IMG/VR virus record: IMGVR_UViG_3300031547_000001
Length of the DNA stretch: 64,000 nucleotides
Direction: 5' to 3' (one strand)
From: an uncultured virus (IMG/VR IMGVR_UViG_3300031547_000001)
Taxonomy: Duplodnaviria; Heunggongvirae; Uroviricota; Caudoviricetes
Under the pieces are notes generated by a model. The model was not told the origin of the DNA and ran no database searches. It saw only the letters and a program-made list of their open reading frames with translations. Below, in pieces: positions 24,842 through 57,839 of this stretch. The position numbers and the translations under genes were made by a program. The stretch's first letter is position 1. Each line of letters starts with the position of its first letter.

Positions 24842-24924
24842 TCTCCGAGACGGGACTCGAACCCGCGACTTCCCTCCCTCTGCTGGATGCCAGGGAGATA
24901 GCTCTGCCGCTGAGCTACTCGGAG
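24842..24924 (-). ncRNA. tRNA-like RNA with non-canonical anticodon arm
   Basis: Acceptor stem CUCCGAG/CUCGGAG, U8A9, D arm GCUC-AGCGGCA-GAGC, T arm GCGGG-UUCGAGU-CCCGU; anticodon arm has a 7-bp stem and 12-nt loop; no encoded CCA. Confidence 0.75.
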
Positions 24925-28807: not shown

Positions 28808-28850
28808 CGCTTACGAGTAGAACTATACTCCGAAAAGTCGAAGCGAGTTC
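28808..28850 (-). promoter_or_regulatory. phage promoter copy
   Basis: TATAGT-TCTACTCGTAAGCG on the minus strand. Confidence 0.7.
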
Positions 28851-33736: not shown

Positions 33737-33747
33737 GGTTACTCCCT

Positions 33748-33804
33748 GGACTCCTCAGCATGGGTACCTTACCCACGGACACCGCTGGGTGCGGTGTTTC
33801 GTCC
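33748..33804 (-). ncRNA. hammerhead ribozyme type II (HH1)
   Basis: GGAC-GAAA-CACCGC/GCGGUG-UC^-CGUGGG/CCCAUG-CUGAGGA-GUCC; cleavage predicted between 33778 and 33777. Confidence 0.92.
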
Positions 33805-33817
33805 TGGTCGGGATGGA

Positions 33818-33952
33818 TCAGTCGAGCACTACATTCAGCAGGACCGTGAACAGGATCCCTGCTGCGAACCCGGTGCCCACGACGACGAGGAGCAGAAGCC
33901 CGAAGGCTCTTGCGCAACCCTCGCCGTCCGGCTGCTGGAACTTCTCGCTCAC
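33818..33952 (-). CDS. small membrane protein
   Basis: GTGA-coupled; hydrophobic C-terminal half. Confidence 0.5.
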   Translation of the reverse strand: MSEKFQQPDGEGCARAFGLLLLVVVGTGFAAGILFTVLLNVVLD

Positions 33953-34236
33953 TGGAGCGCGTCCCAGAGGGTGCGCGGCGCGTAGGAGCTGTACGGGCTG
34001 GAGCCGGACACGCCGTCCAGAGCGAGCCATACGGCGTTGCGTTCCAGGTCGGCCAGCGGACGCTCCTCGCAGTAGTCGGCGAGCTCCTCTCCGGAGATCG
34101 CGCCGACGACGACGTTCGTGAGCGGGTAGGACGGCTGCACGCCGCAGAGCACCTGGACCTCGGCGGGGTCGATCCCGCTCTCTTCCAGGTCAAGGGCGAT
34201 GGCCGCGAGCTTGTCGAGCAGCTCACCAAGCTTCAT
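33949..34236 (-). CDS. hypothetical protein
   Basis: RBS GGAGG. Confidence 0.65.
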   Translation of the reverse strand: MKLGELLDKLAAIALDLEESGIDPAEVQVLCGVQPSYPLTNVVVGAISGEELADYCEERPLADLERNAVWLALDGVSGSSPYSSYAPRTLWDALQ

Positions 34237-34636
34237 GCTTCCTCCACGATCTCGTCAGCACCCGTGCCTTACGGGCGGACCGCCGTGACTGGCTGCCACG
34301 GGGTTTCGATCTGGCTGTGGATCAGGTACCGGTCAGGCCCTTGATTGCGCTCAGCAGCAGGACACCGGCGATGATGCCGACCATGCAGCAGAGCAGGAAC
34401 TTGCCCATCACTTCCCTCCCACTGCTGCAGCGAAATTGTACAGGAGGATGAACAGAACGGCTCCGGCGAGGATCGCCTTGGGCCAGCTCATGGAAACTCC
34501 TACTGGTTGTTGGGGTCGGTGTCGTGCTGCTCGTGTACCAACGGCGGACCGGCGGGCTGCCCCTGGTTGCTGATGGGCAGGCTGATCATCGGCTGGACGC
34601 CCTGCTCGGGCAGGTCCCTGGGGCAGGCCTCGTCGC

Positions 34637-35092
34637 TCACAGCTCGGTCTCCACGAAGCCCGCACCGTCCAGGGCGGACTGTACCGGGTCATGCCCGAGG
34701 ATCCAGCGCTGCGGCGGGTCGAGCCGGAGGATCCGGCCGTCGATGCGGATCTTCTCGTTCGTGAGGCGCTCCACCTCGAAGCAGAGCCACTCGATGTTGA
34801 GCCACGCCGGGACCGTCGCGCTGCTGTGCGTGAATATCGAGGAGACGGCCGCGTGCACGAACGGGTCGGTGGCCACATCGGCCAGGGCCGGACCCAGGCC
34901 CAGCTCCTCGTTGCGCGGGTTGGACCGCTTGTTGTCGAGGTACCAGGACATGTCGTCGTCCGCCATCGACTTGAGCCGCTGCACCTCGTGTGCGCGCTCC
35001 GTGGCCTCGGGGCCGGTGAACAGCGCCACGAGTTCGGCGTCGTCGCACCCCTCGGTCGCCTTGTACAGGAGGACGACCTTCTCTTGATCCAT
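34637..35092 (-). CDS. hypothetical protein
   Basis: RBS AAGGAG just after HH2. Confidence 0.7.
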   Translation of the reverse strand: MDQEKVVLLYKATEGCDDAELVALFTGPEATERAHEVQRLKSMADDDMSWYLDNKRSNPRNEELGLGPALADVATDPFVHAAVSSIFTHSSATVPAWLNIEWLCFEVERLTNEKIRIDGRILRLDPPQRWILGHDPVQSALDGAGFVETEL

Positions 35093-35104
35093 TTGTACTC
35101 CTTG

Positions 35105-35157
35105 AGAGCTCCTCAGCACCGGCTCTTACCGGCGGACACCCGAAGGTGTTTCGCTCT
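35105..35157 (-). ncRNA. hammerhead ribozyme type II (HH2)
   Basis: AGAGC-GAAA-CACC-UUCG-GGUG-UC^-CGCCGG/CCGGUG-CUGAGGA-GCUCU; cleavage 35135/35134. Confidence 0.93.
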
Positions 35158-35221
35158 TGTGGACAGCGCCCCGGGAGGTTGGGGTGGTCGTCCTCCCCCG
35201 GGGCGCTGCCGTCTGTGGGTG

Positions 35222-35722
35222 TTACTTGACCGGCTCGGCGCCAACCGTCCGGCGGGAGCGACGGGCTCGGGGCTTGGGCGCCTCCTCGACCTTCGGCTCC
35301 TCAGCGGCCTGCTCGGTGACCTCCGCCTTGACCTCGACCTCGGCGGCGACGGGCGCCTCTTCGGTCTTGGCCTCGTCCTCGGCGGGCTTGTCCTCCGCCT
35401 TGGGCTCCTCGGTGGCCGGAGCCGCCTCGGTGACGACCGCGCTGCTCAGCTTGGCCAGCTCCTTCTCCAGAGCCGCCTTGCGCTTGGCGACACGCTCGGC
35501 CTCCTTGGCAGCCGCCGCGTCCTTCTTCGCCTTGAGGGCGGCCTGGTTGTCGTCGCTCGCCTGGAAGTCCATGCGGAAGGCGACGGCCAGCTGGACCGTC
35601 TTGAGGTCCGCCTCGACCCCGGTCTGCTCCAGGATCCACTTGGCGAAGCGCTCGTGCAGCTCCGTGGGGGCGGAGGCAGCGCGCTCGGCGAAGGACTTCT
35701 TCTTGCTGTTGTTGTCGGTCAT
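35222..35722 (-). CDS. PTELH-family protein, paralogue 2
   Basis: Shared N-terminal motif; RBS AAGGAG after HH3. Confidence 0.8.
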   Translation of the reverse strand: MTDNNSKKKSFAERAASAPTELHERFAKWILEQTGVEADLKTVQLAVAFRMDFQASDDNQAALKAKKDAAAAKEAERVAKRKAALEKELAKLSSAVVTEAAPATEEPKAEDKPAEDEAKTEEAPVAAEVEVKAEVTEQAAEEPKVEEAPKPRARRSRRTVGAEPVK

Positions 35723-35735
35723 GACTTGCTCCTTG

Positions 35736-35806
35736 GGACTCCTCAGCACCGGCGCTCTACCGGCGGACCATCGGGGCGGCCTTGCGACCGCCCCTAGGTT
35801 TCGTCC
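35736..35806 (-). ncRNA. hammerhead ribozyme type II (HH3)
   Basis: GGAC-GAAA-CC..GGGGCGGUC-GCAA-GGCCGCCCC..GG-UC^-CGCCGG/CCGGUG-CUGAGGA-GUCC; cleavage 35766/35765. Confidence 0.92.
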
Positions 35807-35858
35807 TGTCTATGTTGTCGTGCTTCTCACGCACCCGCCGGGACCTACCGGCTGCTTG

Positions 35859-36062
35859 TGCGAGGCGCGTCAGGCAGTCGATTACCTGAGCTTCGGGTTT
35901 TGTGGAGGACCCGTTCCTGTCTCCAAGGCTGCATTTGCTGCTACCGACCTCTTGCCTGGCCGCCCTGCTCGGTGCTCGCGGTCTCCGGCTCGGAAGCTTC
36001 GTCTCAACCTCGTACTCGGCGCTGCGGCCGTTCCGGGGAGTCGCTTCCTGCCCTCTCGCTTA
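35859..36062 (-). ncRNA. structured leader RNA, copy B (homologous to 39099-39303)
   Basis: Collinear conserved blocks shared with copy A; 5' GCGAG can pair with 3' CUCGC; lies between a promoter and HH3. Confidence 0.6.
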
Positions 36063-36099
36063 CGAGTAGAACTATGCCCCATATCGGCGCCGGAGGCAA
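36057..36099 (-). promoter_or_regulatory. phage promoter copy
   Basis: TTGCCT-17 bp-CATAGT-TCTACTCGTAAGCG. Confidence 0.75.
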
Positions 36100-36105
36100 C
36101 CCCTC

Positions 36106-36196
36106 GTCTACCTGCGCATTCATCACGTTTGCCCTGGTAGGAGGCTCGCGAAGTTTCTCCATCTTTTTTGGAGAAGTTTCAAATGCGCAGGTAGAC
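36106..36196. repeat. 15-bp inverted repeat plus third half-site upstream of promoter
   Basis: GTCTACCTGCGCATT (36106-36120) / AATGCGCAGGTAGAC (36182-36196); TTTGCCCTGGTAGG lies between them. Confidence 0.75.
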
Positions 36197-36255
36197 CTGA
36201 GTGCGACGCGTCTACGGCGATTCACCGTGGGCCAGGGCGAATCGGGCGAAACACC

Positions 36256-36621
36256 CTAGAGAGGCAGGAGCTTCCACAGGTTGCCGTTGGGCGTGCGCAC
36301 CACATCCTGGCCGTCGTTGGTCTTGCCGACCATCTCGATCAGCAGGGTGTCGGCCTTCCTCGGCGCCTCGGGAACGGGCACGACCTCGACCGCCTTGGCC
36401 TTGCGGGCCCCGGGGATGTTGCCGACCTCCCACGTGTTGCCACGATTGACGACCTTGATGTAGTTACCCAGGGACGTCTTCTCCAGGGTCCGACGCATGG
36501 CGTAGCGGACCTGCTCGCCGGTCAGGCCGGTTGCGGCCACGATCTCGGTTGCCGTCACCACCTCGTTCGCGCGGGTCTTCAGGTAGGCAATGACGTCGTT
36601 GGAGATGTTCTGTGCGGGCAC
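36256..36621 (-). CDS. winged-helix DNA-binding protein (putative)
   Basis: VIAYLK...VTATEIVAATGLTGEQVRYAMRR; RBS AAGGAG after HH4. Confidence 0.6.
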   Translation of the reverse strand: MPAQNISNDVIAYLKTRANEVVTATEIVAATGLTGEQVRYAMRRTLEKTSLGNYIKVVNRGNTWEVGNIPGARKAKAVEVVPVPEAPRKADTLLIEMVGKTNDGQDVVRTPNGNLWKLLPL

Positions 36622-36639
36622 TGTTACTCCTTGTTGATT

Positions 36640-36708
36640 GAGCTCCTCAGCACGGGCCATTACCCGTGGACACCGTGGCGGCTGTCGGGCCACCCCGGTG
36701 TTTCGCTC
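36640..36708 (-). ncRNA. hammerhead ribozyme type II (HH4)
   Basis: GAGC-GAAA-CACCG...CGGUG-UC^-CACGGG/CCCGUG-CUGAGGA-GCUC; begins immediately after the upstream stop codon; cleavage 36669/36668. Confidence 0.92.
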
Positions 36709-36945
36709 TCATCGCTCGTTGGTGTCGATCTGCACCGTCACGGGAACGTTGAACCTGGACGGGTGCGAGCCGTCGTTGTCGTCTTCCATCCAGGCCACGT
36801 CTGCGAGTTGCAGGAAGTCAACGAACCGGGCGGCCATCAGCATGTTGGGGAACGTGAAGCTCCTGATGCCGAGAGTGTTGAACCCCAGCTCGCCGTTGAA
36901 CGCCGTCACGGAGTCCAGCATCCGCGAGATCTGACTCTCGTTCAC
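36709..36945 (-). CDS. hypothetical protein
   Basis: RBS GAGGAGGA; stop abuts HH4. Confidence 0.6.
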   Translation of the reverse strand: MNESQISRMLDSVTAFNGELGFNTLGIRSFTFPNMLMAARFVDFLQLADVAWMEDDNDGSHPSRFNVPVTVQIDTNER

Positions 36946-37267
36946 GTCTCTCGTCCTCCTCGCTGTTGCGCTCCCGGTACATCCGGAAGGCTCGGCGCAG
37001 CGTACCCGGCAGGACGCCGTAGGAGCGCGCTAGGGCGGCCTGCGAGCCGTTGCCGGTCCCGGCGGCCAGCCACTCCGCGTAGAGCTCCTCTACGGGCTTA
37101 GGGAGCTTCACGTATCGGTGCGCGGTGCCTGTGATCCGGCGTACCCGCTTGCGCACCTGGGACTCGTTGCAGCCATACACGGCGGCCGTGCGGGTGTTGT
37201 CGTTCCCGCACAGCGCGCGCATGGCCATGAGTTCCGCATCCGACTCGGGCAGGATGCGAGCCGTCAT
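36818..37267 (-). CDS. double helix-turn-helix protein (putative)
   Basis: TRTAAVYGCNESQVRKRV and QAALARSYGVLPGTLRRAF; 3' end overlaps the next gene. Confidence 0.55.
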   Translation of the reverse strand: MTARILPESDAELMAMRALCGNDNTRTAAVYGCNESQVRKRVRRITGTAHRYVKLPKPVEELYAEWLAAGTGNGSQAALARSYGVLPGTLRRAFRMYRERNSEEDERRERESDLADAGLRDGVQRRAGVQHSRHQELHVPQHADGRPVR

Positions 37268-37348
37268 GTCAGTGGTCCTTTCCGCCTGTCGTCCCGCTGC
37301 CGCCGTTGTCCTGTCCGTCGTTGGTCTTGCCGTGCTCGTCGCCGCCCA

Positions 37349-37507
37349 TCAGTACGCCTCTCCGTACAGGTCGGTGGCGTCCGCGTCCGGCGGCTGCACC
37401 TGCTCGGTGGGCGTGTGGCCTCGGGTCTCCGCCTGCACGATCGACAGAGCCTCGTTGGGTCCGGCGGGCTCGTGGGTCACGTTGTGGCCACGGGGTACGT
37501 CAGGCAT
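37349..37507 (-). CDS. small hypothetical protein
   Basis: RBS GAGGAG; MPDVPRGHNV... Confidence 0.5.
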   Translation of the reverse strand: MPDVPRGHNVTHEPAGPNEALSIVQAETRGHTPTEQVQPPDADATDLYGEAY

Positions 37508-37748
37508 TGGTCTCCTCGCTGATGTCGAACTGGATGACGACGGGCTTGTCGAACGCGACCTGGCTCACGCCGTTCTCGTCGCTCCGGATCCGGGCGACCT
37601 TACGGAGCCCCGACAGGAGGATGTAGTCGGACGCGCACAGCAGGTCCTCGAACTCGACGTCCATCATGTAGCCATCGTCGCCCAGGATCTTGCCACCGAA
37701 GTGGACGCAGTTGCGCTCCACCGTCGCCTTGATGCTGGCACCGCTCAT
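37500..37748 (-). CDS. hypothetical protein
   Basis: RBS AAGGAG after HH5. Confidence 0.65.
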   Translation of the reverse strand: MSGASIKATVERNCVHFGGKILGDDGYMMDVEFEDLLCASDYILLSGLRKVARIRSDENGVSQVAFDKPVVIQFDISEETNA

Positions 37749-37762
37749 AGCTCTCCTTCTCG

Positions 37763-37827
37763 GGACTCCTCAGCACAGCCTCTTAGCTGCGGACCATCGG
37801 GCCCTTGGAGGGCCCTAGGTTTCGTCC
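37763..37827 (-). ncRNA. hammerhead ribozyme type II (HH5)
   Basis: GGAC-GAAA-CC..GGGCCC/GGGCCC..GG-UC^-CGCAGC/GCUGUG-CUGAGGA-GUCC; cleavage 37792/37791. Confidence 0.92.
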
Positions 37828-37835
37828 TTACGGCC

Positions 37836-38468
37836 TTACGCGCCGAACTCAGCCCGGCGCATGACCGACTTGATGCCGTGGCTCTTGACGAGCTCCGTCG
37901 CCCGCTGGAAGCACGCCTCCTCGTCGAGCGGGTCGATGACCTCCAGGCGCTCCGTGTCGACCGTGGCCGGGTAGCGGAAGCCCTCCATGTTGTCGACCTT
38001 GAACACGCCCACCTTGCCGTAGCGGTTGAAGTCGGAGGGCTTGATCGCCTCGATGACGCCCTCGCACCCGACGTACCGGCCCTTGGTCGTCTTGGACTTG
38101 ACGCGCTTCCCGTAGGAGGGCGTGCTCCACTCGCGGATGTACTGCTCGGTCAGGTTGGCGATCATGATCGCCTCAGCCGCCGCGATGACCTCGGGGGTTG
38201 CGTCGATGGCGCAGTGGTTGTGGTAGGTCCAGCCACGAGTCGTCGCGTACTGGACGACCTTGACCTTGCCCTCTTCCTTGTCGAGGACGATCGCCATGAA
38301 GTCGCTGTCGTCGTACATGTTGCGCTCGAAGGTGTCGATGACGCAGTCGACATAGGTGACCTCGTGGGCCTGCTCGACGTGCGCCTGGAACAGGCCGTTC
38401 TGCTCGCTGTACGAGTTGGGGTTGTAGCCCTCCGGCAGGTTGGGGTTGATGCACGTGATGATGGGCAC
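37836..38468 (-). CDS. hypothetical protein
   Basis: GTG after AGGAGG; GC3-biased codons. Confidence 0.7.
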   Translation of the reverse strand: MPIITCINPNLPEGYNPNSYSEQNGLFQAHVEQAHEVTYVDCVIDTFERNMYDDSDFMAIVLDKEEGKVKVVQYATTRGWTYHNHCAIDATPEVIAAAEAIMIANLTEQYIREWSTPSYGKRVKSKTTKGRYVGCEGVIEAIKPSDFNRYGKVGVFKVDNMEGFRYPATVDTERLEVIDPLDEEACFQRATELVKSHGIKSVMRRAEFGA

Positions 38469-38481
38469 GGGATCCTCCTGG

Positions 38482-38548
38482 GGACTCTTCAGCAGCGCCT
38501 CTGTAGCGCCGGACCGTCGCCCCGGTTGCCCGGGGCTAGGTTTCGTCC
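38482..38548 (-). ncRNA. hammerhead ribozyme type II (HH6)
   Basis: GGAC-GAAA-CC..GCCCCGG-GCAA-CCGGGGC..GG-UC^-CGGCGC/GCGCUG-CUGAAGA-GUCC; cleavage 38512/38511. Confidence 0.92.
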
Positions 38549-38551
38549 TGG

Positions 38552-38794
38552 TTACTTCTCCATGCTCTGGCCGATGAGGCACCAGGCGCACTCTTCGGAG
38601 AGCTCGGGGAACTCCCGCTTGATCTGCACGAAGAGCTTCTGCGCCTCCGCGTCCTGCTCCGCCCATGCCGGCATGCAGCCGGGCAGCGGGATGGGCTGGC
38701 CCAGCGAGAGGGCCATCGCGTCGAAGTCGGCCGCCAGCATCAGCGTCGCGTCGTCGGCGGGCTTGTCGGTGATGACCTGGGCTACCGCGTACAT
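38552..38794 (-). CDS. hypothetical protein
   Basis: RBS AGGAGG after HH7; stop 3 nt before HH6. Confidence 0.65.
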   Translation of the reverse strand: MYAVAQVITDKPADDATLMLAADFDAMALSLGQPIPLPGCMPAWAEQDAEAQKLFVQIKREFPELSEECAWCLIGQSMEK

Positions 38795-38805
38795 GCTTCC
38801 TCCTG

Positions 38806-38879
38806 GAGCTCCTCAGCAGCGCCGTTCAGCGCCGGACGGCCGGAGCCCCGCTGGCTGCGGGGCCCGGACCGTTTCGCTC
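38806..38879 (-). ncRNA. hammerhead ribozyme type II (HH7)
   Basis: GAGC-GAAA-CGG..GCCCCGC/GCGGGGC..CCG-UC^-CGGCGC/GCGCUG-CUGAGGA-GCUC; cleavage 38835/38834. Confidence 0.92.
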
Positions 38880-39010
38880 TACTGCTTCGGCGGGTTCGCG
38901 ACCTCGACTACAGCCGCGTCCTCGCCCCACCCGGCCTGTGCGGCGGGCAGATCAGCCGGAAGCTGGATGACCTCGGCGTCGTTCCCGAGGTGCTGCTCGT
39001 TCTCGGCCAT
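38879..39010 (-). CDS. 43-aa acidic peptide
   Basis: MAENEQHLGNDAEVIQLP...; RBS AAGGAG; exactly fills the gap between HH8 and HH7. Confidence 0.6.
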   Translation of the reverse strand: MAENEQHLGNDAEVIQLPADLPAAQAGWGEDAAVVEVANPPKQ

Positions 39011-39022
39011 GTTCTCTCCTTG

Positions 39023-39088
39023 AGACTCTTCAGGACCGCCGTTCAGCGGCCGACCCTCGGGGCTTGTGCAGCCCCTCGGGTTTCGTCT
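39023..39088 (-). ncRNA. hammerhead ribozyme type II (HH8)
   Basis: AGAC-GAAA-CCC..GGGGCU/AGCCCC..GGG-UC^-GGCCGC/GCGGUC-CUGAAGA-GUCU; cleavage 39052/39051. Confidence 0.92.
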
Positions 39089-39098
39089 TAGTTGGTTT

Positions 39099-39303
39099 CG
39101 CGAGGCGCCTTGCCCCGCGCTTCGGCGTTACCGCCTACCGGTTTTGTGGAGGTCCGGTGCCTGTCTAGAGTCAGCGGCCCTTGCGGGGCGCGATCGCAGC
39201 CGTCTCTCTTGGCTGTCCTACCGGGGCTCGCGGTCTTCGGGCGGATCCTCGACCGTCGGCTGGAGTCGCCGTCCCGGGAGTTCCTGTCCTGCCCTCTCGC
39301 TTA
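39099..39303 (-). ncRNA. structured leader RNA, copy A (homologous to 35859-36062)
   Basis: Collinear conserved blocks; lies between a promoter and HH8. Confidence 0.6.
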
Positions 39304-39341
39304 CAGGTAGAACTTTACTCCATGTCGACAGAAACGCAAAA
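39298..39341 (-). promoter_or_regulatory. phage promoter copy
   Basis: TTGCGT...TAAAGT-TCTACCTGTAAGCG. Confidence 0.7.
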
Positions 39342-39346
39342 CAGCT

Positions 39347-39433
39347 CCTACCTGGTCAAACGCGCGTTTGCCCTGGTAGGGGGCTTGCAAAGTTTCTTGA
39401 AGTTTTTTCCGGAAGTGCGAATGCCCTGGTAGG
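39347..39433. repeat. upstream module with three GC(C/G)C(T/A)GGTAG-type half-sites
   Basis: CCTACCTGGTCAAA, TTTGCCCTGGTAGG and AATGCCCTGGTAGG; same layout as 36106-36196. Confidence 0.7.
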
Positions 39434-39598
39434 CGGCTTGCGGCCCTACGCGCTCGCGTAAGGGGCTAGGGAGCGCCCGATGGGCCAGGGGCCCGGACTG
39501 CCGGCATGCGGCCGTTACGCGGCCACGTAGCCCGGCGCACGACCCCGGAACGCAGGACAGCCCCGGCTGGTAGGCCGGGGCTGTCGGAGCGGGGCTGG

Positions 39599-40225
39599 TC
39601 AGTCGTTCAGGCGACCGGCGCAGGGCAGGGTGTTGTAGGCCATGTAGTTCTCCTTGACCGAGTCCTCGCCGAACTCCTCCGGGGAGTAGATGTGGGCGGT
39701 GATCTCGGTGTGGGAGTGAGCCATCAGGGTCTCCTTGGAGTAGCCCTGCTTGCGGGTCTTCTTCTTGAGGTCGGCGCACCCGAAGGCGTGGACCTCGGGC
39801 TCGCCCATCCCGCCGTAGACGAGGGTCAGCTTGACCGGGGTCGTGTCGATCTCCTGCTCGGCGACAGCGGCCTTGACCTCGGCCTCGTCGTCGCTGAGGG
39901 CCTGGTCGGCCTCGGAGTCGTACTCCTCGGTCGCCGCGACCTTGCCGGTCAGCTTGGCGAGCTCGGCCTCCAGCTTGGCCTTCTTGCGGGCCGCGCTGGC
40001 CTTCTTGGTGGCGGCTGCAGCGGCCTTCTTGGCGGCCAGGACGGCCTGGTTCTCGGGGGAGGCCTGGAAGTCCATCCGGAAGATCACGGCGAGCTGGACG
40101 GTCTTGAGGTCGGGCTTGATGCCGGTCTCGGCCTCGATCCACTCGGCGAAGTGGCGGTGGAGCTCGGTCGGCTCGACAGCTGCGCGCTCGGCGATGGTCT
40201 TCGCGGTGGCGGTGGTCTTGTTCAT
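39599..40225 (-). CDS. PTELH-family protein, paralogue 3
   Basis: Shared N-terminal motif; extra C-terminal H...C..L domain; RBS GAGGAG. Confidence 0.8.
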   Translation of the reverse strand: MNKTTATAKTIAERAAVEPTELHRHFAEWIEAETGIKPDLKTVQLAVIFRMDFQASPENQAVLAAKKAAAAATKKASAARKKAKLEAELAKLTGKVAATEEYDSEADQALSDDEAEVKAAVAEQEIDTTPVKLTLVYGGMGEPEVHAFGCADLKKKTRKQGYSKETLMAHSHTEITAHIYSPEEFGEDSVKENYMAYNTLPCAGRLND

Positions 40226-40324
40226 CGTGATCTCCTCGGTGGTGTTCCCTCTTGCTTACAGAGAGAACTCTACGCCAGTCCAGTCCAGTTGGCTACCTCC
40301 AACCGCGACTTTCTTGAAGATTCT

Positions 40325-40597
40325 TTACGCGATGCCGAGGAGGTCGGCCCACGCCTCCAGCTCGACGTCCGTCATCCAGTTGATCCGCTGCTGGTCGAAG
40401 GGCGACACGGCCACCTCGGCCAGGAGGCCCATCCGGATCTGCGCCTGGCGGCTGCGGGGACCGGCCGTGAGGGCGACGGCGTCGCGCAGGAGCTCCGTGT
40501 GACCGAGCAGCGCACCGCCCTTGTCGAAGGCCGAGTAGGACCGGTTGCCGCCGATGACGTAGCCCTTGGCGTACTCGCGACGCTTGAACATCTGCAC
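40325..40597 (-). CDS. early hypothetical protein
   Basis: Own promoter; RBS AGGGAG. Confidence 0.65.
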   Translation of the reverse strand: MQMFKRREYAKGYVIGGNRSYSAFDKGGALLGHTELLRDAVALTAGPRSRQAQIRMGLLAEVAVSPFDQQRINWMTDVELEAWADLLGIA

Positions 40598-40680
40598 TCC
40601 CTGGTGTTGGTCTCGCTTACAAGAAGAACTCTACTCCATTCGGGGTGGAGGCGCTACCCTCCACCCCGACCTATTTCGGA

Positions 40681-40947
40681 TCAGGCGAGCGGGGCCAGCA
40701 GCTCGGCCCAGTCCTCCAGCTCGATGGCGCCCATCTCGTTGACCTTGGCGACCTCCATCGGGGTCTCGAGGGCGAACTCCCGGATCAGCGCCCGGCGGAT
40801 CGCACCCTCGTAGGTGCCGACCTCGTCGGCGTCCTCGGCGCGGTCCCAGTCGTTGGTCCGGACCTGCAGCGCGCCATCGGCGGTGAAGACCGAGTAGCAG
40901 CCGAGGTTCGAGGTGATGAAGCCGTTGGTGGTGTCGATGCGGGCCAT
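40681..40947 (-). CDS. early hypothetical protein
   Basis: Own promoter; RBS GAGGAGG. Confidence 0.7.
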   Translation of the reverse strand: MARIDTTNGFITSNLGCYSVFTADGALQVRTNDWDRAEDADEVGTYEGAIRRALIREFALETPMEVAKVNEMGAIELEDWAELLAPLA

Positions 40948-41071
40948 GGAGTCCTCCTCGTTGGTGTTCCTGCCGTCCTTACAAGAAGAACTCTACCCTG
41001 TGGAGGTGCAGAAGGCAAGCAATTGCAGTGACCAATTCTTTGGGGGCGTAGGCGCCCGACTGCAGGCCACG

Positions 41072-41088
41072 GCATAGGTTAAAGCCCA
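41072..41088. repeat. 17-bp repeat, copy 1 of 3
   Basis: GCATAGGTTAAAGCCCA, also at 42817-42833 and 43612-43628. Confidence 0.85.
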
Positions 41089-41170
41089 GCTGTGTGCAGT
41101 CGCTCGTTACACGGCCGTGCACATGCCGGCAGCCCGCCTCCTCCAGGGAGACGGGCTGCGGTCGGCTGGG

Positions 41171-41443
41171 CTACTTCGAGTCGGTCTGGATCAGGTGGGC
41201 CAGGTTGAGGTCCATCGAGTCGGGGTAGGTCATGTCGATCTCGACCATGTCGTACCGGGCGAGGGCCTTGGGGTTGAGGCGGACCCAGTAGGCGTAGAAG
41301 GTGCCGCGCCCCTCCTCGTCCTCGCCCTCCTCGAAGATCTCGACCCAGGCGCCGATCACGCGGCCGGAGGAGATGTTGGCGTCGACCTCGCAGGACTCGC
41401 GGACCAGGTGGACGAGGAGCTGGGGGTCGGTGATCTCGCTCAT
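41171..41443 (-). CDS. early hypothetical protein
   Basis: Own promoter; RBS AAGGAG. Confidence 0.7.
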   Translation of the reverse strand: MSEITDPQLLVHLVRESCEVDANISSGRVIGAWVEIFEEGEDEEGRGTFYAYWVRLNPKALARYDMVEIDMTYPDSMDLNLAHLIQTDSK

Positions 41444-41571
41444 TTGGACTCCTTAGTGGTGTTCCCTGTCTTACGAGAGTAACTCTACTCCACCTGCAAC
41501 CGTATGGCTACCCTCCAGTGCAACTATTTTGCAGCCGGAGGGGCGGGCCCCGGAGGACCCGCCCGGCCAGA

Positions 41572-41874
41572 CTAGGAGCGGTAGGCGCACGCGGCGCACG
41601 AGGCGCCGAAGCCAACCACCGGCGCGCAGTCGGCGCCACAGCCGACCCCGGCGACCCAGGGGCGGAGGTGGGAGGCGGGGACGACATCGGATGCGACCCG
41701 ACGCCAGTTAAGGTCGAACCAGTGGCAGCCGACCCGGCCGCCGTTTACCGACTGGACCACACCGATAAGGCCCCGGCAGCCGACGGAGGCGTAGGACCAA
41801 CCAGCGCGGGTAAACGAGGTACCCGGGACGTAGACGAGCGAGCCGATGGCGGGGAGAACGGGCAGACCGGACAT
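41572..41874 (-). CDS. early hypothetical protein
   Basis: Own promoter; RBS AAGGAG; less typical codon use. Confidence 0.55.
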   Translation of the reverse strand: MSGLPVLPAIGSLVYVPGTSFTRAGWSYASVGCRGLIGVVQSVNGGRVGCHWFDLNWRRVASDVVPASHLRPWVAGVGCGADCAPVVGFGASCAACAYRS

Positions 41875-41953
41875 TTGGACTCCTTGGTGTTGGGCTTACG
41901 AGTAGAACTCTACTCCACTGGAGGGCAGTTGGCTACCCTCCAGTGGAGATTGT

Positions 41954-42106
41954 TTACAGCGGGTTGCCCTCCGGGTCGTGCAGGTGACGGGACAGGATGG
42001 TCAGCTCGTCGATGACGGCCTGCCGCCGGTTGGTCGCCTGCTCGATCTGGTACAGCGTCTCGGAGTCGGTCGACTGGTCCGGGTTGGTGTTGTCCTCGTT
42101 GTTCAT
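41954..42106 (-). CDS. 50-aa protein, probably leaderless
   Basis: ATG 6 nt after the -10 box TAGACT; no RBS. Confidence 0.5.
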   Translation of the reverse strand: MNNEDNTNPDQSTDSETLYQIEQATNRRQAVIDELTILSRHLHDPEGNPL

Positions 42107-42248
42107 AGGTAGAGTCTACCTCAACTCCAGTTGCAGCGCTACCCCTTGTCGAGAATCAGTACGTGGCCGTGTAAGGGCCTGCGGACGCGCGAGAGGCCAC
42201 GGGTACCGGGTTGGTACCGCGCGGCCTCGTAGTGGGCGAGGAGACGGC

Positions 42249-42512
42249 CTACTGGCCGTACTCGCAGTGCTCGCAGTAGATGCGCTCGCAGTCCCAGCAG
42301 TGCTTGTCGAGCGGATAGTCGTGCTCCTCGCACATCCCGTAGTCCGTCTTCGGCCCGCACAGCTCGACCGACAGGACCTCGACCTCCTTGTCCGGCCACT
42401 TCATCTGGACGTCGACCCGCGCGTTGTCCTCGGACGTCGCCTTGACGAGCGTCTGCGACCAGCTCTCCCATCCCCGGATCTGGATCTTGACGAGGTACTG
42501 CGACCAGCTCAT
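42249..42512 (-). CDS. early protein with C-terminal Cys cluster
   Basis: RBS AAGGAG; CEEH...HCWDCERIYCEHC. Confidence 0.65.
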   Translation of the reverse strand: MSWSQYLVKIQIRGWESWSQTLVKATSEDNARVDVQMKWPDKEVEVLSVELCGPKTDYGMCEEHDYPLDKHCWDCERIYCEHCEYGQ

Positions 42513-42573
42513 GGCGTGCTCCTTGTTGGTGTTGGGGCGGAGGGGCCACCCTGGTTGGGGTGGCCCCGGGGTC

Positions 42574-42708
42574 CTACTCGGTGGGCTGGGACAGGGTCTC
42601 CGGCCGCATCGGCTCGGTGGTCGCCTGGACCCAGATGACCTCCGGCTGAGCCGGGGTCTCGTCGCACCAGGGCTCGGCGTCGAAGTCGGGGTTCGGGGTA
42701 CCGGGCAT
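42574..42708 (-). CDS. small acidic peptide
   Basis: MPGTPNPDFDAEPWC...; RBS GAGGAGG; own promoter. Confidence 0.5.
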   Translation of the reverse strand: MPGTPNPDFDAEPWCDETPAQPEVIWVQATTEPMRPETLSQPTE

Positions 42709-42816
42709 CTCATCCTCCTCGTTGTCGATAGGACAACTCTACCTCATGGACATGGAGTTGGCTACCCTCCACAGCGACCAATTGTATGGCCGTCTGCCGG
42801 CATGGCGTGTGCAGGT

Positions 42817-42833
42817 GCATAGGTTAAAGCCCA
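42817..42833. repeat. 17-bp repeat, copy 2 of 3
   Basis: GCATAGGTTAAAGCCCA. Confidence 0.85.
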
Positions 42834-42890
42834 GCCATGTGCACCGTGTGGAGGGGCGGCCTCCTAGGAGGCCGCCCGGGGTCGTGTGGA

Positions 42891-43121
42891 CTAGAAGGAG
42901 AAGCCGACCCAGTAGGTCGCGGAGCAGGCGCCCCACGAGACGCCCTCGGCCCCGTTGGCCTTGGCCCAGTTGGCGACCTCGACCAGCGTGTCGGCGTTGT
43001 TGGCCACGGTGAAGGTGTTGAGGACCTCGGTGGAGCTGGAGTAGCCCTGCTTGACGATGACCGAGGCGCGCTTGCGACGGTCGGCGGGGCAACGGACCTC
43101 GAAGCGGGTCTGCTTGTTCAT
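42891..43121 (-). CDS. early hypothetical protein
   Basis: Own promoter; RBS AGGAGG. Confidence 0.7.
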   Translation of the reverse strand: MNKQTRFEVRCPADRRKRASVIVKQGYSSSTEVLNTFTVANNADTLVEVANWAKANGAEGVSWGACSATYWVGFSF

Positions 43122-43225
43122 GGGATCCTCCTGGTTGGTGTTCCTGCTTACAAGAGTAACTCTACCTCATGGAGGTGGAGAAGGCAAGCCCGGGGCCGGT
43201 CCAGTTTTGGACCGGCCCCGAGGGG

Positions 43226-43483
43226 TCAGGCGAGCCGGGCGGCGATGGCCTTGGCCGGGTCGCGGAACAGGAACTCGGTGGAGGCGTCCACCTGACCGGC
43301 GCGGAGCACGACCGCCTGGACCCGGTCGATGAACTGGGACCGGGTCACCGGCTGGCCCTTGGCGATGGCCTCGACGGTGACGTCCAGCTCGCGGGTCGCG
43401 GCCAGGAGCTTGGCGGAGCGGGTCCGGTTGGCCTCGGCCACGGTCGCGTCGATCAGGTCCTGGATCGCCTTGGTGTTGATCAT
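43226..43483 (-). CDS. early hypothetical protein
   Basis: Own promoter; RBS AAGGAGG. Confidence 0.7.
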   Translation of the reverse strand: MINTKAIQDLIDATVAEANRTRSAKLLAATRELDVTVEAIAKGQPVTRSQFIDRVQAVVLRAGQVDASTEFLFRDPAKAIAARLA

Positions 43484-43611
43484 TTCGTCCTCCTTGGTGT
43501 TCCCTCGCTTACAGTAGTAACTATACTCCAGTTGGAGGTGCACCGCTACCCCTTTCTGCACTTTTCTTGGATCGGATCTTTGGGGCCTAGCGGGCGTGCC
43601 GGCATGGAGGT

Positions 43612-43628
43612 GCATAGGTTAAAGCCCA
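43612..43628. repeat. 17-bp repeat, copy 3 of 3
   Basis: GCATAGGTTAAAGCCCA. Confidence 0.85.
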
Positions 43629-43696
43629 CAGGCTGTAGAACGTGGCGTAGGGCCGCTCCCTGGCTCGGGGCGGCCCTACTGGAGGTGGCGCAGCTA

Positions 43697-44056
43697 CTAC
43701 GCTGCACCCTTGCGGTACTCGCCGTACTCCTTGAGACGATCGAGGTCGAGCGCGTTGAGTGCGTCGTACAGGGCCTGCTTCGCCTCGGCCTCGCTGCCCT
43801 CGGTGCCCTTGACGAGGCCGGTCTTGACGAGCCGGTAGTCGTGCTCGAAGCGGAGCAGCGCCTCGTAGGGCTCCATGGCCTTGACGACCGCCTCGCAGGC
43901 CTCGCCGAGCTCCGGGGTCGTGCGGTACGCCACGAGGAAGCTCTGGGCCAGGTAGACGGTGAAGCGACCCGCGACGATGTCGTCGAGGCGAGCGAGCTCC
44001 TCGGTGCCCATCTCGGGCAGGAGGGCCTTGAGGTTCTCGATCGCGTTGTTCAGCAC
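43697..44056 (-). CDS. early hypothetical protein
   Basis: Own promoter; RBS AAGGAG. Confidence 0.7.
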   Translation of the reverse strand: MLNNAIENLKALLPEMGTEELARLDDIVAGRFTVYLAQSFLVAYRTTPELGEACEAVVKAMEPYEALLRFEHDYRLVKTGLVKGTEGSEAEAKQALYDALNALDLDRLKEYGEYRKGAA

Positions 44057-44186
44057 TTGGGGCTCCTTCGTGTTGTGGTTACGAGTAGAACTCTACCCTG
44101 TGGACGTCGAGGTGGCTACCCCTCTCCACAAGATTGTTTCGGCGGAGGGGCGCCCCCACCCGCGAGGGGCAGGGGCGCCGGACCGA

Positions 44187-52048: not shown

Positions 52049-52320
52049 CGACACAAGAAGACCTCGATCAGGCGCACCGGGAACTCGAGAGGGCAATCGA
52101 GAACCTGTCGCGCCTGATCGGTGCCGAAGGGGTTATCTCGGAATGGACCGCTGTGGTGTCCTTCCAGTCCTTCGGCGCTAATCGAGGAGAAGGCACCACA
52201 CAGATCATCCGCCTGTTCCCTGACGACGTGCCATATCACAGGAGCATGGGGCTCCTGGATTACGCGCTCACCAGGATGCGCCACAACATCGGAAGGCTCG
52301 ACAATGACGATGACGATTGA
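52045..52320 (+). CDS. hypothetical protein
   Basis: GTGA-coupled. Confidence 0.6.
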   Translation: MTTQEDLDQAHRELERAIENLSRLIGAEGVISEWTAVVSFQSFGANRGEGTTQIIRLFPDDVPYHRSMGLLDYALTRMRHNIGRLDNDDDD

Positions 52321-53890
52321 CGGCTATCTCCAGGAGGTGGCTGATACCTACACCGATGGCAATCGACAGGCGATGTCCTTCCTGCTGGGGACGGAATCCG
52401 GCCGACGCCATCTCACCAAGGATGAGCCGCTCCTGTTCGCCTTGACCTACATGGCCAACTCCCTCAAGATGCCCGCTCCCATCGCTGAGGCGGAAGGCGC
52501 GCAGTCTGAGGAGGGCGTCATCTCGATGTGTGAGTTCCACTGGGAGCTCTGCGAGAAGGCGCGTGACTGGAGCGAGAAGCCTGCCAGCCAGTACGGACCG
52601 GCCGAAGCGCGCGACGCCTACATCGCTCCGCGTGACGCGGGCAAGTCCACCTGGCTGTTCAAGATTCTGCCCCTTTGGGCGGCTGCACACGGACACGCCA
52701 AGTTCATTGCGGCCTTCGCCGACTCGGGGCCCCAGGCCAAGAAGCACCTGTCCTCCTTCAAGCGCGAACTGGAGACCAACGCACTTCTGCAGGCAGACTA
52801 TCCCTTGCTGTGCCAGCCCATGAAGAGGCGCGGCAACGTCACGGTGTCCGACACCCAGGAGATGTACCAGGCGCAGAGCGGCTTCGTGTTCGCCGCAACT
52901 GGAGCGGACACCTCAGTCCTGGGTATGAAGGTCGAGGACCAGCGACCCGACCTCATCATCCTCGACGACCTGGAGCCCGACGAGTCCAGCTACTCCGCGT
53001 ACCAGGCAGGCCAGCGACTCAACACCCTGACGGACGCCATCCTGCCCCTGAACATCCGGGCGCGAGTTGTCCTGTCTGGAACCGTCACCATGCCCGGCTC
53101 GATCACGCACCAGCTCGTCAAGACCGTCCTGAACAAGGACGAGGAACCGGCCGAGTGGATCGTCACCGAGAAGTTCAAGGTGCACCACTTCAAGCCGATC
53201 CTCCAGAACGAGGACGGCACTGAGCGCAGCATGTGGCCGGAGAAGTGGCCCATGTCCTGGCTGGAGACCGTGCGCCACACCCGATCGTTCGCCAAGAACT
53301 ACAACAACGACCCCATGGCGATGGACGGCCAGTACTGGACGCGCGACGACTTCACATACGGCTCGCTGCCTTGCGCCAAGACCGTGCTGTCCATAGATGG
53401 CGCCGTGACCAACAAGGGCGGTAGCGACTTCACTGCGCTGGCCGTCGTTGGCGCCACGGGACACCCTGCTGGACATCCCGATCGTAAGTGCGAGGTCAAG
53501 TACGGCGTGGCCGTCAAGCTGTTGGGCGCAGCGCTGCGGAAGAAGGTCCTGGACATTCTCGAGATGTACCCCGAGATCAGCCTGATCCTGATCGAGGGAA
53601 ACCAGGGCGGAGAGCTCTGGCGAGAAGTCCTGCATAACATGCCTGTGCGCATTTCCATATTCAGCAATTCGGAACCCAAGGAGGTTCGGGCCGGTCGAGT
53701 GCACGCGCTCTATCAGCGCATCCCGACGCGGGTCGTTCACACCGCCCGGCTTCAGGCCGTCGAGGAGAACATGGTGGGCTTCCCCAAGCTCAAGCACGAC
53801 GACCTCGTGGACGCCGTGGGCAATCCCATCCTGAAGTTCCTCAAGCCGAAGCAAGCGCAAAGGCGGAGCGCTCGATCAGTGGGATACTGA
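52304..53890 (+). CDS. terminase large subunit
   Basis: APRDAGKST Walker A, RPDLIILDDLE, SGT, SIDGA, SDFTA, HDDLVDA. Confidence 0.9.
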   Translation: MTMTIDGYLQEVADTYTDGNRQAMSFLLGTESGRRHLTKDEPLLFALTYMANSLKMPAPIAEAEGAQSEEGVISMCEFHWELCEKARDWSEKPASQYGPAEARDAYIAPRDAGKSTWLFKILPLWAAAHGHAKFIAAFADSGPQAKKHLSSFKRELETNALLQADYPLLCQPMKRRGNVTVSDTQEMYQAQSGFVFAATGADTSVLGMKVEDQRPDLIILDDLEPDESSYSAYQAGQRLNTLTDAILPLNIRARVVLSGTVTMPGSITHQLVKTVLNKDEEPAEWIVTEKFKVHHFKPILQNEDGTERSMWPEKWPMSWLETVRHTRSFAKNYNNDPMAMDGQYWTRDDFTYGSLPCAKTVLSIDGAVTNKGGSDFTALAVVGATGHPAGHPDRKCEVKYGVAVKLLGAALRKKVLDILEMYPEISLILIEGNQGGELWREVLHNMPVRISIFSNSEPKEVRAGRVHALYQRIPTRVVHTARLQAVEENMVGFPKLKHDDLVDAVGNPILKFLKPKQAQRRSARSVGY

Positions 53891-53944: not shown

Positions 53945-55507
53945 ATGCCCAATCTCGCTCTCCTGCGGAAGTCCCTCGTGGAACTGGACAAGGCCAAGCC
54001 TGCCTACATCGAGGCTGGTCAGTTCTACGACGGGACGTTCGCAGAGCCGTTCCAGTCGCTCATGATGCAGCGCATGCTCATCCTGGCGAACCCCAACTAC
54101 AAGATGGTCCTCAGCGCCGTGCCGGTTGACGCCGTCGTGGAGAAGCTGGAGATCGTCGACGTTCAGGCGTCAACCCCTGAGGGCACCGAGGTCCTTCAGG
54201 ACGACATCTGGAAGCCGAACAACCTTCGGCTGGAGCACAAGCCCGCCATCCTCGCTGCCGAGAAGTACGGCGACGCCTACCTGTTCGTGTGGCCCGAGGA
54301 CACCGAGTACGAGGTGGTCGAGTCCGACAACGAGGACGTCGCTGCCGAGGAGGCTGCTGACGAGGTAGAGGTCGAGACCTCCATCTCGATCACGTACCAG
54401 TCGCCCTTCAAGGTGCGTGTGTTCTACGACGAGGCCAACCCGCGCAAGAAGACGCACGCCGTCAAGCGGCTCAAGACCGGCAAGGGCAAGCAGGAGTGCG
54501 CCTGGCTGTACTACGCCGACGGCCGCATCGAGAAGTACGAGACTCCCGTCAACAAGTGCACCATCGACGCGTTCTACTACGTCGAGGACGTCGAGAACGA
54601 GATGGACGAGATCCCCTTCGTCCACCTGCGCAACGACTTCCCGTATGGTCGGCCCCTGCACGAGAAGGCGTACGGCCCGCAGAACGCGCTGACCAAGCTC
54701 ACGGTCAACCAGCTCAGCGGCTCCGACTTCGACGCGTTCCCGCAGCGCTGGGCTCTGGCCAAGACCAAGGGCCTGACCGGCGGAGACGACATCGACTGGG
54801 ATGGCGACGACAGCACCGTGCCGGACAAGGAGGGCAACACCCTGTCGACGCTCACCAGCGGACCCGGGCGCATCTGGGACCTGTCGGGCTTCGACTCGGT
54901 GGGGCAGTTCTCCACGGGTGACGTCGGCCAGTTCCTGGAGCCGATGGACTACTACGTCAAGCTGATGGCTAGCGCCACGGGTACGCCGCTCCACTACTTC
55001 ACCTCGGACACCTCGGGTGGTGGAACGCCCACGGGCGAGTCGATCCGCCAGCGTGACGCGCGCCTGAACACCAAGGCGGAGTGGCACCAGAAGACTCTGA
55101 GCAACGGCTTCGAGGAAGCCCTGCTCATGGGCATGGATTACCTGGGCTACGAGGACGAGTCGGTCAGCATCAAGTGGAAGCCGATCGAGTACGTCACCGA
55201 GGAGGAGAAGCTCGCCCTCGTCGAGAAGAAGGTCGCCATCGGCATCCCGCTCGCCGTGGCCCTGGCTGAGGCCGGGTACGACGAGGACACCGTCCGCCAG
55301 TGGACCACCGGACAGCCCAACGAGGACGAGCTCACGGCCCGAATCGCGATGCTGGCTCAGATGGGTGACGCGCTCCAGAAGATCGGTACCGCCGCCACCC
55401 TGGGCATCGACATGACCGACGTCAACGAGATCGTCAAGGCGCTGCTGGGCAAGTTCCAGGGGCTCAACGACCAGGACGACGCGGAAGAGGAAGAGCAGGA
55501 GGCGTAA
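53945..55507 (+). CDS. portal protein (SPP1 gp6-like)
   Basis: Follows the terminase; V..V.EKL, YGDAYL.VW, IPFVHL.N, FPQRW, TGES motifs. Confidence 0.85.
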   Translation: MPNLALLRKSLVELDKAKPAYIEAGQFYDGTFAEPFQSLMMQRMLILANPNYKMVLSAVPVDAVVEKLEIVDVQASTPEGTEVLQDDIWKPNNLRLEHKPAILAAEKYGDAYLFVWPEDTEYEVVESDNEDVAAEEAADEVEVETSISITYQSPFKVRVFYDEANPRKKTHAVKRLKTGKGKQECAWLYYADGRIEKYETPVNKCTIDAFYYVEDVENEMDEIPFVHLRNDFPYGRPLHEKAYGPQNALTKLTVNQLSGSDFDAFPQRWALAKTKGLTGGDDIDWDGDDSTVPDKEGNTLSTLTSGPGRIWDLSGFDSVGQFSTGDVGQFLEPMDYYVKLMASATGTPLHYFTSDTSGGGTPTGESIRQRDARLNTKAEWHQKTLSNGFEEALLMGMDYLGYEDESVSIKWKPIEYVTEEEKLALVEKKVAIGIPLAVALAEAGYDEDTVRQWTTGQPNEDELTARIAMLAQMGDALQKIGTAATLGIDMTDVNEIVKALLGKFQGLNDQDDAEEEEQEA

Positions 55508-57448: not shown

Positions 57449-57709
57449 ATGGCGATCGGCGCGGCTGAGGCCAAGTTCATCGCTGACCTGAAGGCGCACT
57501 GTGCGGCCGGAGCCAAGATCGCTGAGAACTACCTCAAGGCGAGCGACAGCTCCGACCGCCCGGCATCCGTCGTCAGCAGGGCGGCCAACATGATCTCCAG
57601 TCAGGCATACGAGATAGAAGAACTCGGACGCCTGGAGAAGTATCTCGAAGAAGGACCGAACGCCTCCAAGGAGGCAGCGGCTCGCCTTATGGGTGGGTAC
57701 GACTACTGA
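57449..57709 (+). CDS. hypothetical protein
   Basis: RBS GAGGAG. Confidence 0.65.
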   Translation: MAIGAAEAKFIADLKAHCAAGAKIAENYLKASDSSDRPASVVSRAANMISSQAYEIEELGRLEKYLEEGPNASKEAAARLMGGYDY

Positions 57710-57839
57710 TATCCCGCAATGGGGTATCATCTCCTTAGCGTCCGGTCGCTTGGCCGTGCGGAATGGCTCTGGTGGGTACCAGAAATGGGGTCCATCGGGG
57801 CCATTTGCATTTGACAATCTACGACAGAAGGAGTGGAGA

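Follow-up and report, generated by a model that had tools for sequence, protein, structure and literature searches.

Nine type II hammerhead ribozymes predicted to divide the transcripts of two leftward operons in a Yara-related Streptomyces phage

The closest described counterparts of the system treated here are found in prophages. According to the relevant part of Perreault et al. (2011), several hammerhead ribozymes often flank prophage genes or short gene blocks, and processing of the transcripts into operon- or gene-length mRNAs was suggested (PMC3088659). Such arrangements were reported there for prophages of Clostridium scindens, Azorhizobium caulinodans, and Agrobacterium tumefaciens, and three tandem arrangements cleave in vitro, one of them also in vivo (PMC3088659). 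The same text notes a pseudoknot between loop I and the 3' flank of type II hammerheads, and it describes HHphage of the haloviruses HF1 and HF2, which is located 13 nt upstream of the start of the first open reading frame (ORF) on an early polycistronic transcript with a mapped 5' end at most 3 nt from the cut (PMC3088659). A review from 2019 repeats the processing idea, stating in its section on the subject that the purpose of bacterial and phage hammerheads is undefined and that more work is needed (PMC6765202). In 2021, Olzog et al. presented, in their account of Desulfovibrio vulgaris, three type II hammerheads near hypothetical or phage-like genes that were found active in cells by cyPhyRNA-seq (PMC8782182). 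Here we describe an array of nine type II hammerheads in a 64,000-nt stretch of DNA from an uncultured virus of the Caudoviricetes (IMG/VR record IMGVR_UViG_3300031547_000001), which is referred to as the window throughout.

A first-pass annotation had listed eight hammerheads in this region and proposed that they separate the cistrons of early operons, an array for which it knew of no described example. The punctuation principle is, however, not new, because it was set out for prophages in 2011, at least in the passages on genes and short gene blocks (PMC3088659). We searched the window with the loose pattern GAAA-N8-38-GTC-N8-38-CTGANGA and obtained nine matches, all on the minus strand and all between 33.7 and 39.1 kb, a span of 5.4 kb. 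In 100 shuffled sequences, the mean number of matches was 1.67 and the maximum 5, and none reached nine. Pattern search and reading of the strand located each of the eight listed elements at its original coordinates on the minus strand, and recomputation reproduced their stem I sequences and predicted cut sites exactly. The count had to be raised to nine because the element at 34313-34246, HH8 in Table 1, had been overlooked. Downstream of HH9, no further hammerheads were detected in the window.

Every element consists, from 5' to 3', of the first strand of stem II, GAAA, hairpin III, GUC, hairpin I, CUGANGA, and the second strand of stem II. Stem II is open and stems I and III are capped by loops in all nine cases, and the UUCG and GCAA tetraloops noticed in the first-pass annotation all cap stem III (Table 1). 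The core, made up of CUGANGA, GAAA, and the GUC triplet, is present in each copy, and the minimum-energy fold was the canonical three-way junction in 9/9 elements. Judged by the open stem II, the capped stems I and III, and the complete core, the elements are type II hammerheads, the class to which they had been assigned before. From these nine sequences we derived a covariance model, R1, which returned 64-80 bits for its own sources, a result that is circular for the window, and 16 bits for the next best match there.

Table 1. Hammerheads (HH), leaders, and further features of the array. Positions refer to the window unless a locus in a relative is named; the distance is counted from the upstream stop codon to the element. 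SD, Shine-Dalgarno sequence.
Feature	Position	Strand	Stem II	Core	Predicted cut	Next start codon	Distance (nt)	R1 (bits)	RF02276 (bits)	Remarks
HH1	39021..39090	minus	AGAC/GUCU	CUGAAGA	39052/39051	ATG 39010		71.8		leader 1 adjoins upstream; SD AAGGAG begins 1 nt past stem II
HH2	38804..38881	minus	GAGC/GCUC	CUGAGGA	38835/38834	ATG 38794	-1	64.1	22.7	stem II overlaps stop codon 38881-38879 by 1 nt
HH3	38480..38550	minus	GGAC/GUCC	CUGAAGA	38512/38511	GTG 38468	3	70.6		GCAA loop on stem III
HH4	37761..37829	minus	GGAC/GUCC	CUGAGGA	37792/37791	ATG 37748	8	80.5		
HH5	36638..36710	minus	GAGC/GCUC	CUGAGGA	36669/36668	GTG 36621	0	67	25.4	stop codon 36711-36709
HH6	35734..35808	minus	GGAC/GUCC	CUGAGGA	35766/35765	ATG 35722		78.6		leader 2 adjoins upstream; GCAA loop on stem III
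HH7	35104..35158	minus	GAGC/GCUC	CUGAGGA	35135/35134	ATG 35092	65	64.2	24.8	UUCG loop on stem III
HH8	34246..34313	minus	GAUC/GAUC	CUGACGA	34278/34277	ATG 34236	10	68.1	22.6	ninth element, added here
HH9	33746..33806	minus	GGAC/GUCC	CUGAGGA	33778/33777	GTG 33736	13	64.3	26.9	GTG starts a 332-aa DUF2786 protein
Leader 1	39091..39318	minus								promoter-like motif 39318-39300; structured core 39304-39132; ends at HH1
Leader 2	35809..36099	minus								motif match 36077-36059; core 36063-35888; ends at HH6
Promoter-like site of leader 2	-10 at 36076-71	minus								-35 TTGCCT, -10 CATAGT; read by eye
GC-rich hairpin	35164..35208	minus								~15 bp, no U-run; between ORF end 35222 and HH7; read by eye
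U4-to-C copies	L051:1501-1568 (Dryad); L049:1501-1568 (phiRKBJ001); L027:2108-2175 (Rooney)									identical in Wentworth and Lizz
GUA copies	L038:2544-2611 (Lizz); L052:1501-1568 (Rooney); L030:2535-2602 (Dryad)									
Arrays in other IMG/VR contigs	L078; L125; L130-L133; L055-L058; L099-L101; L079; L068									

The array region shares ~80% identity with Streptomyces phage Yara across 75% of its length, and eight other Streptomyces phages align to only 2-7% of it. Using R1 at a cut-off of E ≤ 0.01, we obtained 42 matches with 48.7-76.7 bits in the relatives. The numbers per genome were eight in Yara, Dryad, and Lizz, seven in Rooney, and six in Wentworth and phiRKBJ001. In each genome the copies are located on one strand at ~52-60 kb, within a single 8-kb region. 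Those of Yara occupy 52146-52206, 52508-52575, 53372-53426, 53988-54062, 54848-54902, 57219-57288, 57682-57759, and 57912-57983 in the coordinates of that phage. The survey of related phages suggested in the first-pass annotation thus uncovered the array, with 6-8 copies per genome, in six Streptomyces phages. A weak extra match in Dryad (21.7 bits) was rejected, as it is not a hammerhead. For HH4, no orthologue was found in Yara. All nine hammerheads recur in a near-identical viral record of 24.7 kb (G001).

For the analysis of covariation, 67 matches at E ≤ 1e-10 were aligned and reduced to 48 distinct sequences, to which the following counts refer. Complementary bases occupied 97.9% of the paired cells, compared with 73.9% in shuffles and 34-41% when the pairing partners were slid against each other. 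We counted 144 compensatory cells versus 41 in shuffles, and none of 500 shuffles reached 144. Double-sided changes occurred in 10 of the 14 modelled pairs, covariation was present in all three stems, and stems I and II were 100% paired. The core-adjacent pairs G10.1-C11.1 and A15.1-U16.1 as well as the GAAA motif were retained in 48/48 copies. CUGANGA was found in 45 copies and CCGANGA in three, with all four bases represented at N7. The cleavage triplet was GUC in 45 copies and GUA in three, and it never ended in G. Because the stems covary around an invariant core, we conclude that selection acts on the catalytic fold.

Some further regularities were observed in the family. The copies with GUA instead of GUC lie near 59.6 kb, and GUA is allowed by the N-U-H rule. 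The second pair of stem I is a G.U wobble in 42/48 copies, the A directly 5' of stem II is invariant, and the first base of loop I is nearly always U. The wobble pair, the A, and the U are candidate residues for tertiary contacts.

The ribozymes are closely coupled to the ribosome-binding sites (RBS) of the genes that follow. In each of the nine window copies, stem II is followed by the SD at a distance of 1-7 nt, and a 5' untranslated region (UTR) of 40-47 nt is predicted after the cut. The same holds for the family, in which 48/48 copies have GGAG or GAGG 1-9 nt past stem II and then a start codon. With this arrangement, cleavage would leave a uniform 5' UTR with a predicted length of 38-47 nt. 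The first-pass annotation had also placed one element ahead of each cistron block, several of them within a few nucleotides of an upstream stop codon and all on the coding strand, and each of these statements held. Seven elements follow the stop codon of an ORF at the distances given in Table 1, and HH1 and HH6 are preceded by non-coding leaders rather than ORF stops. The minus-strand ORFs of the array region have a GC content at third codon positions (GC3) of 0.80-0.97, and their Yara homologues are all annotated on the corresponding strand.

In Yara, every gene of the homologous arm is annotated on the strand of the array; this arm runs leftward over 40 kb, with the array midway along it. 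Small genes of unknown function and a primase gene are located upstream of the array, and genes for a helicase, a dCMP deaminase, a Cas4-like nuclease, a RecA-like protein, DnaE, and ThyX downstream. Comparison of 14 ORFs of the window with Pfam and PHROGs yielded only families of unknown function and weak helix-turn-helix matches. Gene 88 of Yara (CDS L001:8766-9017) is annotated across the hammerhead at L001:8915-8986. The true start of this gene probably lies downstream of the annotated one, because an SD and an ATG are located just past the ribozyme.

Each of the two operons appears to start at a promoter of its own. The promoter-like motif GTAGAGTTCTACTCGTAAG has 13 matches with up to three mismatches, compared with 0.05 expected. 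These sites are distributed over 36059-44096 on the minus strand, with further copies at 28810-28828 (minus) and 8428-8446 (plus). Between 40 and 44 kb, a copy of the motif with a strong hairpin ahead of it accompanies nearly every small gene, so that each gene of this segment seems to be equipped with one promoter and one terminator-like hairpin. From its sequence, the adjoining 5.4 kb uses hammerheads in place of this per-gene arrangement. The promoters are proposed from the repeated motif and from reading by eye; a scan of the consensus for sigma-70 promoters and terminators gave 0 promoters and one terminator-like site, on the wrong strand. The term "early" for the transcripts is one that we infer from promoter type and map position.

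The structured leaders have cores of ~170 nt. Each core begins at the promoter-like motif, and the hammerhead follows 41-80 nt further on. Two leader copies are present in every related phage, and the leader was found at 13 more loci on IMG/VR contigs of the same lineage. RNAalifold, applied to 14 aligned leaders, predicted a nested 5' domain with compensation in 5 of 25 pairs. The 3' part contains a short hairpin with the C-rich loop ACCUCCACAAAA, which resembles an anti-Shine-Dalgarno sequence, and its stem covaries (CCGG/CCGG, CGGG/CCCG, CCA/UGG). In E-value mode at 30-42 kb, the leaders had no Rfam match. A tentative extension, which we hold to be rather unlikely, is that cleavage also sets the leaders free as functional RNAs of ~250-300 nt. 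These might regulate translation of the host or the phage in trans, or they might modify the polymerase as antitermination RNAs. If so, the array would serve the ribozyme-driven maturation of both mRNAs and non-coding RNAs, and in the antitermination version transcription would be able to pass nine GC-rich ribozyme hairpins.

We consider it likely that the nine type II hammerheads cut the long transcripts of two leftward operons of a Yara-related soil phage of Streptomyces into mRNAs for individual gene blocks. Transcription of each operon would start at a host-type promoter and proceed through the structured leader. The junction would fold during transcription, and self-cleavage would take place 3' of the C in GUC. 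On the upstream side, this would leave a 5' product that terminates in the GC-rich hairpin of stem III and carries a 2',3'-cyclic phosphate. On the downstream side, it would generate a 3' product that carries its 5'-OH at the foot of the stem I hairpin and continues with CUGANGA, the 4-nt strand of stem II, the SD, and the start codon. In seven of nine predicted folds of the 3' product, the stem I hairpin was located at the extreme 5' end. Because only the 4-bp stem II would join the products after the cut, they should separate and the reaction should be effectively irreversible. Two long early transcripts would thereby be split into two free leaders and nine mRNAs, one per gene block, with each mRNA gaining a standard 5' UTR of 40-47 nt and hairpin-protected ends. 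The hairpins at the termini, together with the unusual end chemistry, may shield the mRNAs from 5'-end-dependent and from 3'-exonucleolytic decay. Translation and decay of each block would be uncoupled from those of its neighbours. The elements very probably self-cleave. The sequences themselves establish the motifs with their fold and covariation, the conserved core, the link to ribosome-binding sites, and the retention of the array among relatives, whereas cleavage as such, end chemistry, stabilising effect, timing, and independence from host RNases are inferred.

Several observations weigh against this reading, beginning with the outcome of the Rfam check proposed in the first-pass annotation. 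At the gathering threshold, Rfam reported no hammerhead in the 64-kb window but only a tRNA. In E-value mode at 30-42 kb, five of the nine elements aligned end to end with RF02276 (Hammerhead_II), but their 22.6-26.9 bits fell short of the gathering score of 37 bits, and the other four were without an RF02276 match at E ≤ 10. The gathering score was thus reached by 0/9. This limit is set for the database and does not define a hammerhead biochemically. RF02276 has the same core, helix order, and open stem II as the window elements, which do not match the 3' tail and the loop I consensus of the model. With regard to annotation, the standard gathering route overlooks all nine, and the Yara record annotates none of its copies.

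The remaining objections concern catalysis itself, and they favour the view that the elements are mostly non-catalytic in the cell and serve as conserved hairpins that host nucleases or a phage protein would recognise as signals for RNA stability or processing. Punctuation would then depend on enzymes. We regard this as improbable. In its favour, stem II comprises only 4 bp, and no signal of a tertiary contact was obtained. The search for a pseudoknot between loop I and the 3' flank, a contact that stabilises many natural type II hammerheads, was limited to Watson-Crick pairs and gave a mean complementary run of 2.06 versus 2.00 in shuffles for the 48 copies, and 2.30 versus 2.29 for 87 IMG/VR copies. 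Because this signal is missing, the ribozymes could be slow at cellular Mg2+ concentrations. Moreover, a core change of U4 to C (CCGAUGA or CCGAAGA) occurs in three distinct copies, which belong to one locus after one leader in five relatives and preserve stem III through compensatory changes. The change should weaken catalysis; its conservation in five relatives suggests that the structure perhaps matters apart from cleavage. The window counterpart, HH6, has a canonical core, and the altered copy may be a slowed or regulated variant. RNA data bear on both readings. Four soil RNA libraries hold 7-11% of the sampled words, compared as contigs, which cannot resolve RNA ends, and with DNA carry-over possible. 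Contigs from two studies end, without a loose end, at 34314 and 34316, which is the 5' edge of HH8 and away from the predicted cut. We count these stops as a weak hint of cleavage, and their place at the 5' edge as a point for the non-catalytic view. Further contig ends at 38881, 35803, 35756, and 39031, each from one run, are located inside hammerheads or at their edges, and a contig at 35803-36048 covers almost exactly leader 2. Among the pieces listed, none crosses any of the nine cut sites; as these pieces, which account for the depth bins, cover only ~1/3 of the region, this is not evidence. What speaks for catalysis is that at least 11 unpaired core bases are invariant across the 48 copies, as a ribozyme needs and a hairpin does not, with N7 free and H17 never G. 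In addition, similar type II hammerheads of prophages and bacteria are active, as far as the respective accounts go (PMC3088659, PMC8782182).

Other explanations start from the arrangement of the elements. As conserved modules between genes, the hammerheads might chiefly mark cassette boundaries and thereby help small accessory genes to be exchanged among related phages by recombination, with cleavage being secondary. Gene content is indeed poorly conserved outside Yara, given the 2-7% alignment, yet the five of these eight phages that were searched keep 6-8 hammerheads, and the presence of individual elements varies, as seen for HH4. The shared sequence amounts, however, to a split core of only ~20 nt between divergent stems, which makes a poor substrate for homologous recombination, and the compensatory changes in the stems point to selection acting on the RNA. 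We therefore judge this role, which is compatible with cleavage, to be quite improbable as the chief one. A regulated translational switch, in which cleavage frees or hides the adjacent SD and so gates the next gene, would agree with the position of the SD 1-7 nt past stem II in 9/9 elements. It appears very improbable in view of the predicted probability of the SD being unpaired, which ranges from 0.35 to 0.74 in the uncleaved RNA and from 0.32 to 0.77 in the 3' product (higher in seven cases, the same in one, lower in one). RNAs with 5'-OH and 2',3'-cyclic-phosphate ends are substrates of RtcB-type ligases. Hammerhead products carry this end chemistry, and the segments between ribozymes might be circularised or spliced, either by a ligase or through chimeric hammerheads, as the neighbours HH3 and HH4 share the stem II GGAC/GUCC. 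Stem II differs, however, in seven of eight adjacent pairs, which could therefore not form chimeric ribozymes, and Perreault et al., in their account of the prophage arrays, sought spliced or circular products and found none (PMC3088659). Of all proposals, this one strikes us as the least credible, to the point of being nearly negligible. Self-cleavage into gene-block mRNAs remains the reading that we prefer.

The arrangement is not confined to the Yara group. A strict version of the motif was present at >146 IMG/VR loci, and R1 found 174 matches on the 80 loci that were read. According to array sizes worked out from match coordinates, at least seven other viral contigs carry same-strand arrays of 8, 8, 7, 6, 6, 5, and 5 copies within 1.4-5.8 kb, with a ribozyme GC content of 0.44-0.72. 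An SD-like motif and a start codon occurred within ~45 nt after 62 of 88 distinct IMG/VR copies. Yara, Wentworth, Gibson, Rooney, Dryad, and Lizz were isolated with named Streptomyces hosts and offer a test system; the five that were searched, i.e., all except Gibson, carry 6-8 copies each. Binding to a hammerhead ribozyme has been noted for aminoglycosides, which are Streptomyces products, as has inhibition of phage infection at an early step (PMC9239200). It is a speculation that ribozyme-dependent early expression sensitises phages like this one to aminoglycosides.

Apart from the ribozymes, a few features of the window deserve mention. Two minus-strand genes at 39599-40225 (E 5e-79) and 35222-35722 (E 3e-47) form a paralogous pair, both assigned to phrog_20596. 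The latter comes directly after leader 2 and HH6 and encodes an Ala/Lys/Glu-rich product. Downstream of it lies the GC-rich hairpin of Table 1, which the terminator scan did not report and which might serve this gene as a partial terminator or as a stabiliser of its 3' end. The gene calls at 36709-37267 are uncertain; two candidate ORFs on the minus strand, 37267-36818 and 36945-36709, share 128 nt that they read in different frames. The tRNA gene reported by Rfam is located on the minus strand at 24842-24924; it is 83 nt long, has a long insert in the anticodon/variable region, and scored 42.5 bits.

The nine elements are real, and they are new instances of an already described principle. Like the prophage arrays of Perreault et al., insofar as these are described there, they are one-strand hammerheads between phage genes or gene blocks, the type II class occurs in both, and a transcript-cutting role is proposed for both (PMC3088659). 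The arrays tested in that work were triples (PMC3088659), compared with nine copies in 5.4 kb here and 6-8 per genome in six relatives. The family presented here differs further in that it belongs to culturable Streptomyces phages, has an RBS within 1-9 nt in 48/48 copies, and shows no pseudoknot signal. The D. vulgaris hammerheads are likewise of type II and near phage-like genes, and 5'-OH and 2',3'-cyclic-phosphate ends were reported for them in vivo; in that account they are three single chromosomal loci rather than an array (PMC8782182). HHphage, as portrayed in 2011, is a single, structurally variant element of an archaeal virus, unlike the array of the window (PMC3088659). No earlier description of such ribozymes from Streptomyces phages or actinobacteriophages came up in our literature search. 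New here are the size of the array and its conservation in culturable phages, the invariant module of ribozyme, RBS, and start codon, the miss by Rfam, and the two ribozyme-terminated leaders.

Two further systems resemble the array in function or position. In the early operon of T7, host RNase III cuts long, irregular double-stranded stems between cistrons, which results in several mRNAs with hairpin ends. The likeness is one of function only, as the window elements have a hammerhead core and a three-way junction. T7 needs the host enzyme, whereas the RNA of the window is predicted to cut itself and to generate a different end chemistry. Ribozyme insulators including RiboJ are said to go back to Lou and coworkers in 2012. 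RiboJ is an engineered satellite-RNA hammerhead with an added hairpin that is placed upstream of the RBS and gives mRNAs a uniform, short 5' end. The window elements take the same place ahead of the RBS; they differ in being natural, of type II, and arranged nine in series. Synthetic ribozyme insulators of this kind have been described, at least in outline (PMC6206723). The fixed module of ribozyme, RBS, and start codon can thus be viewed as a natural counterpart of these engineered insulators.

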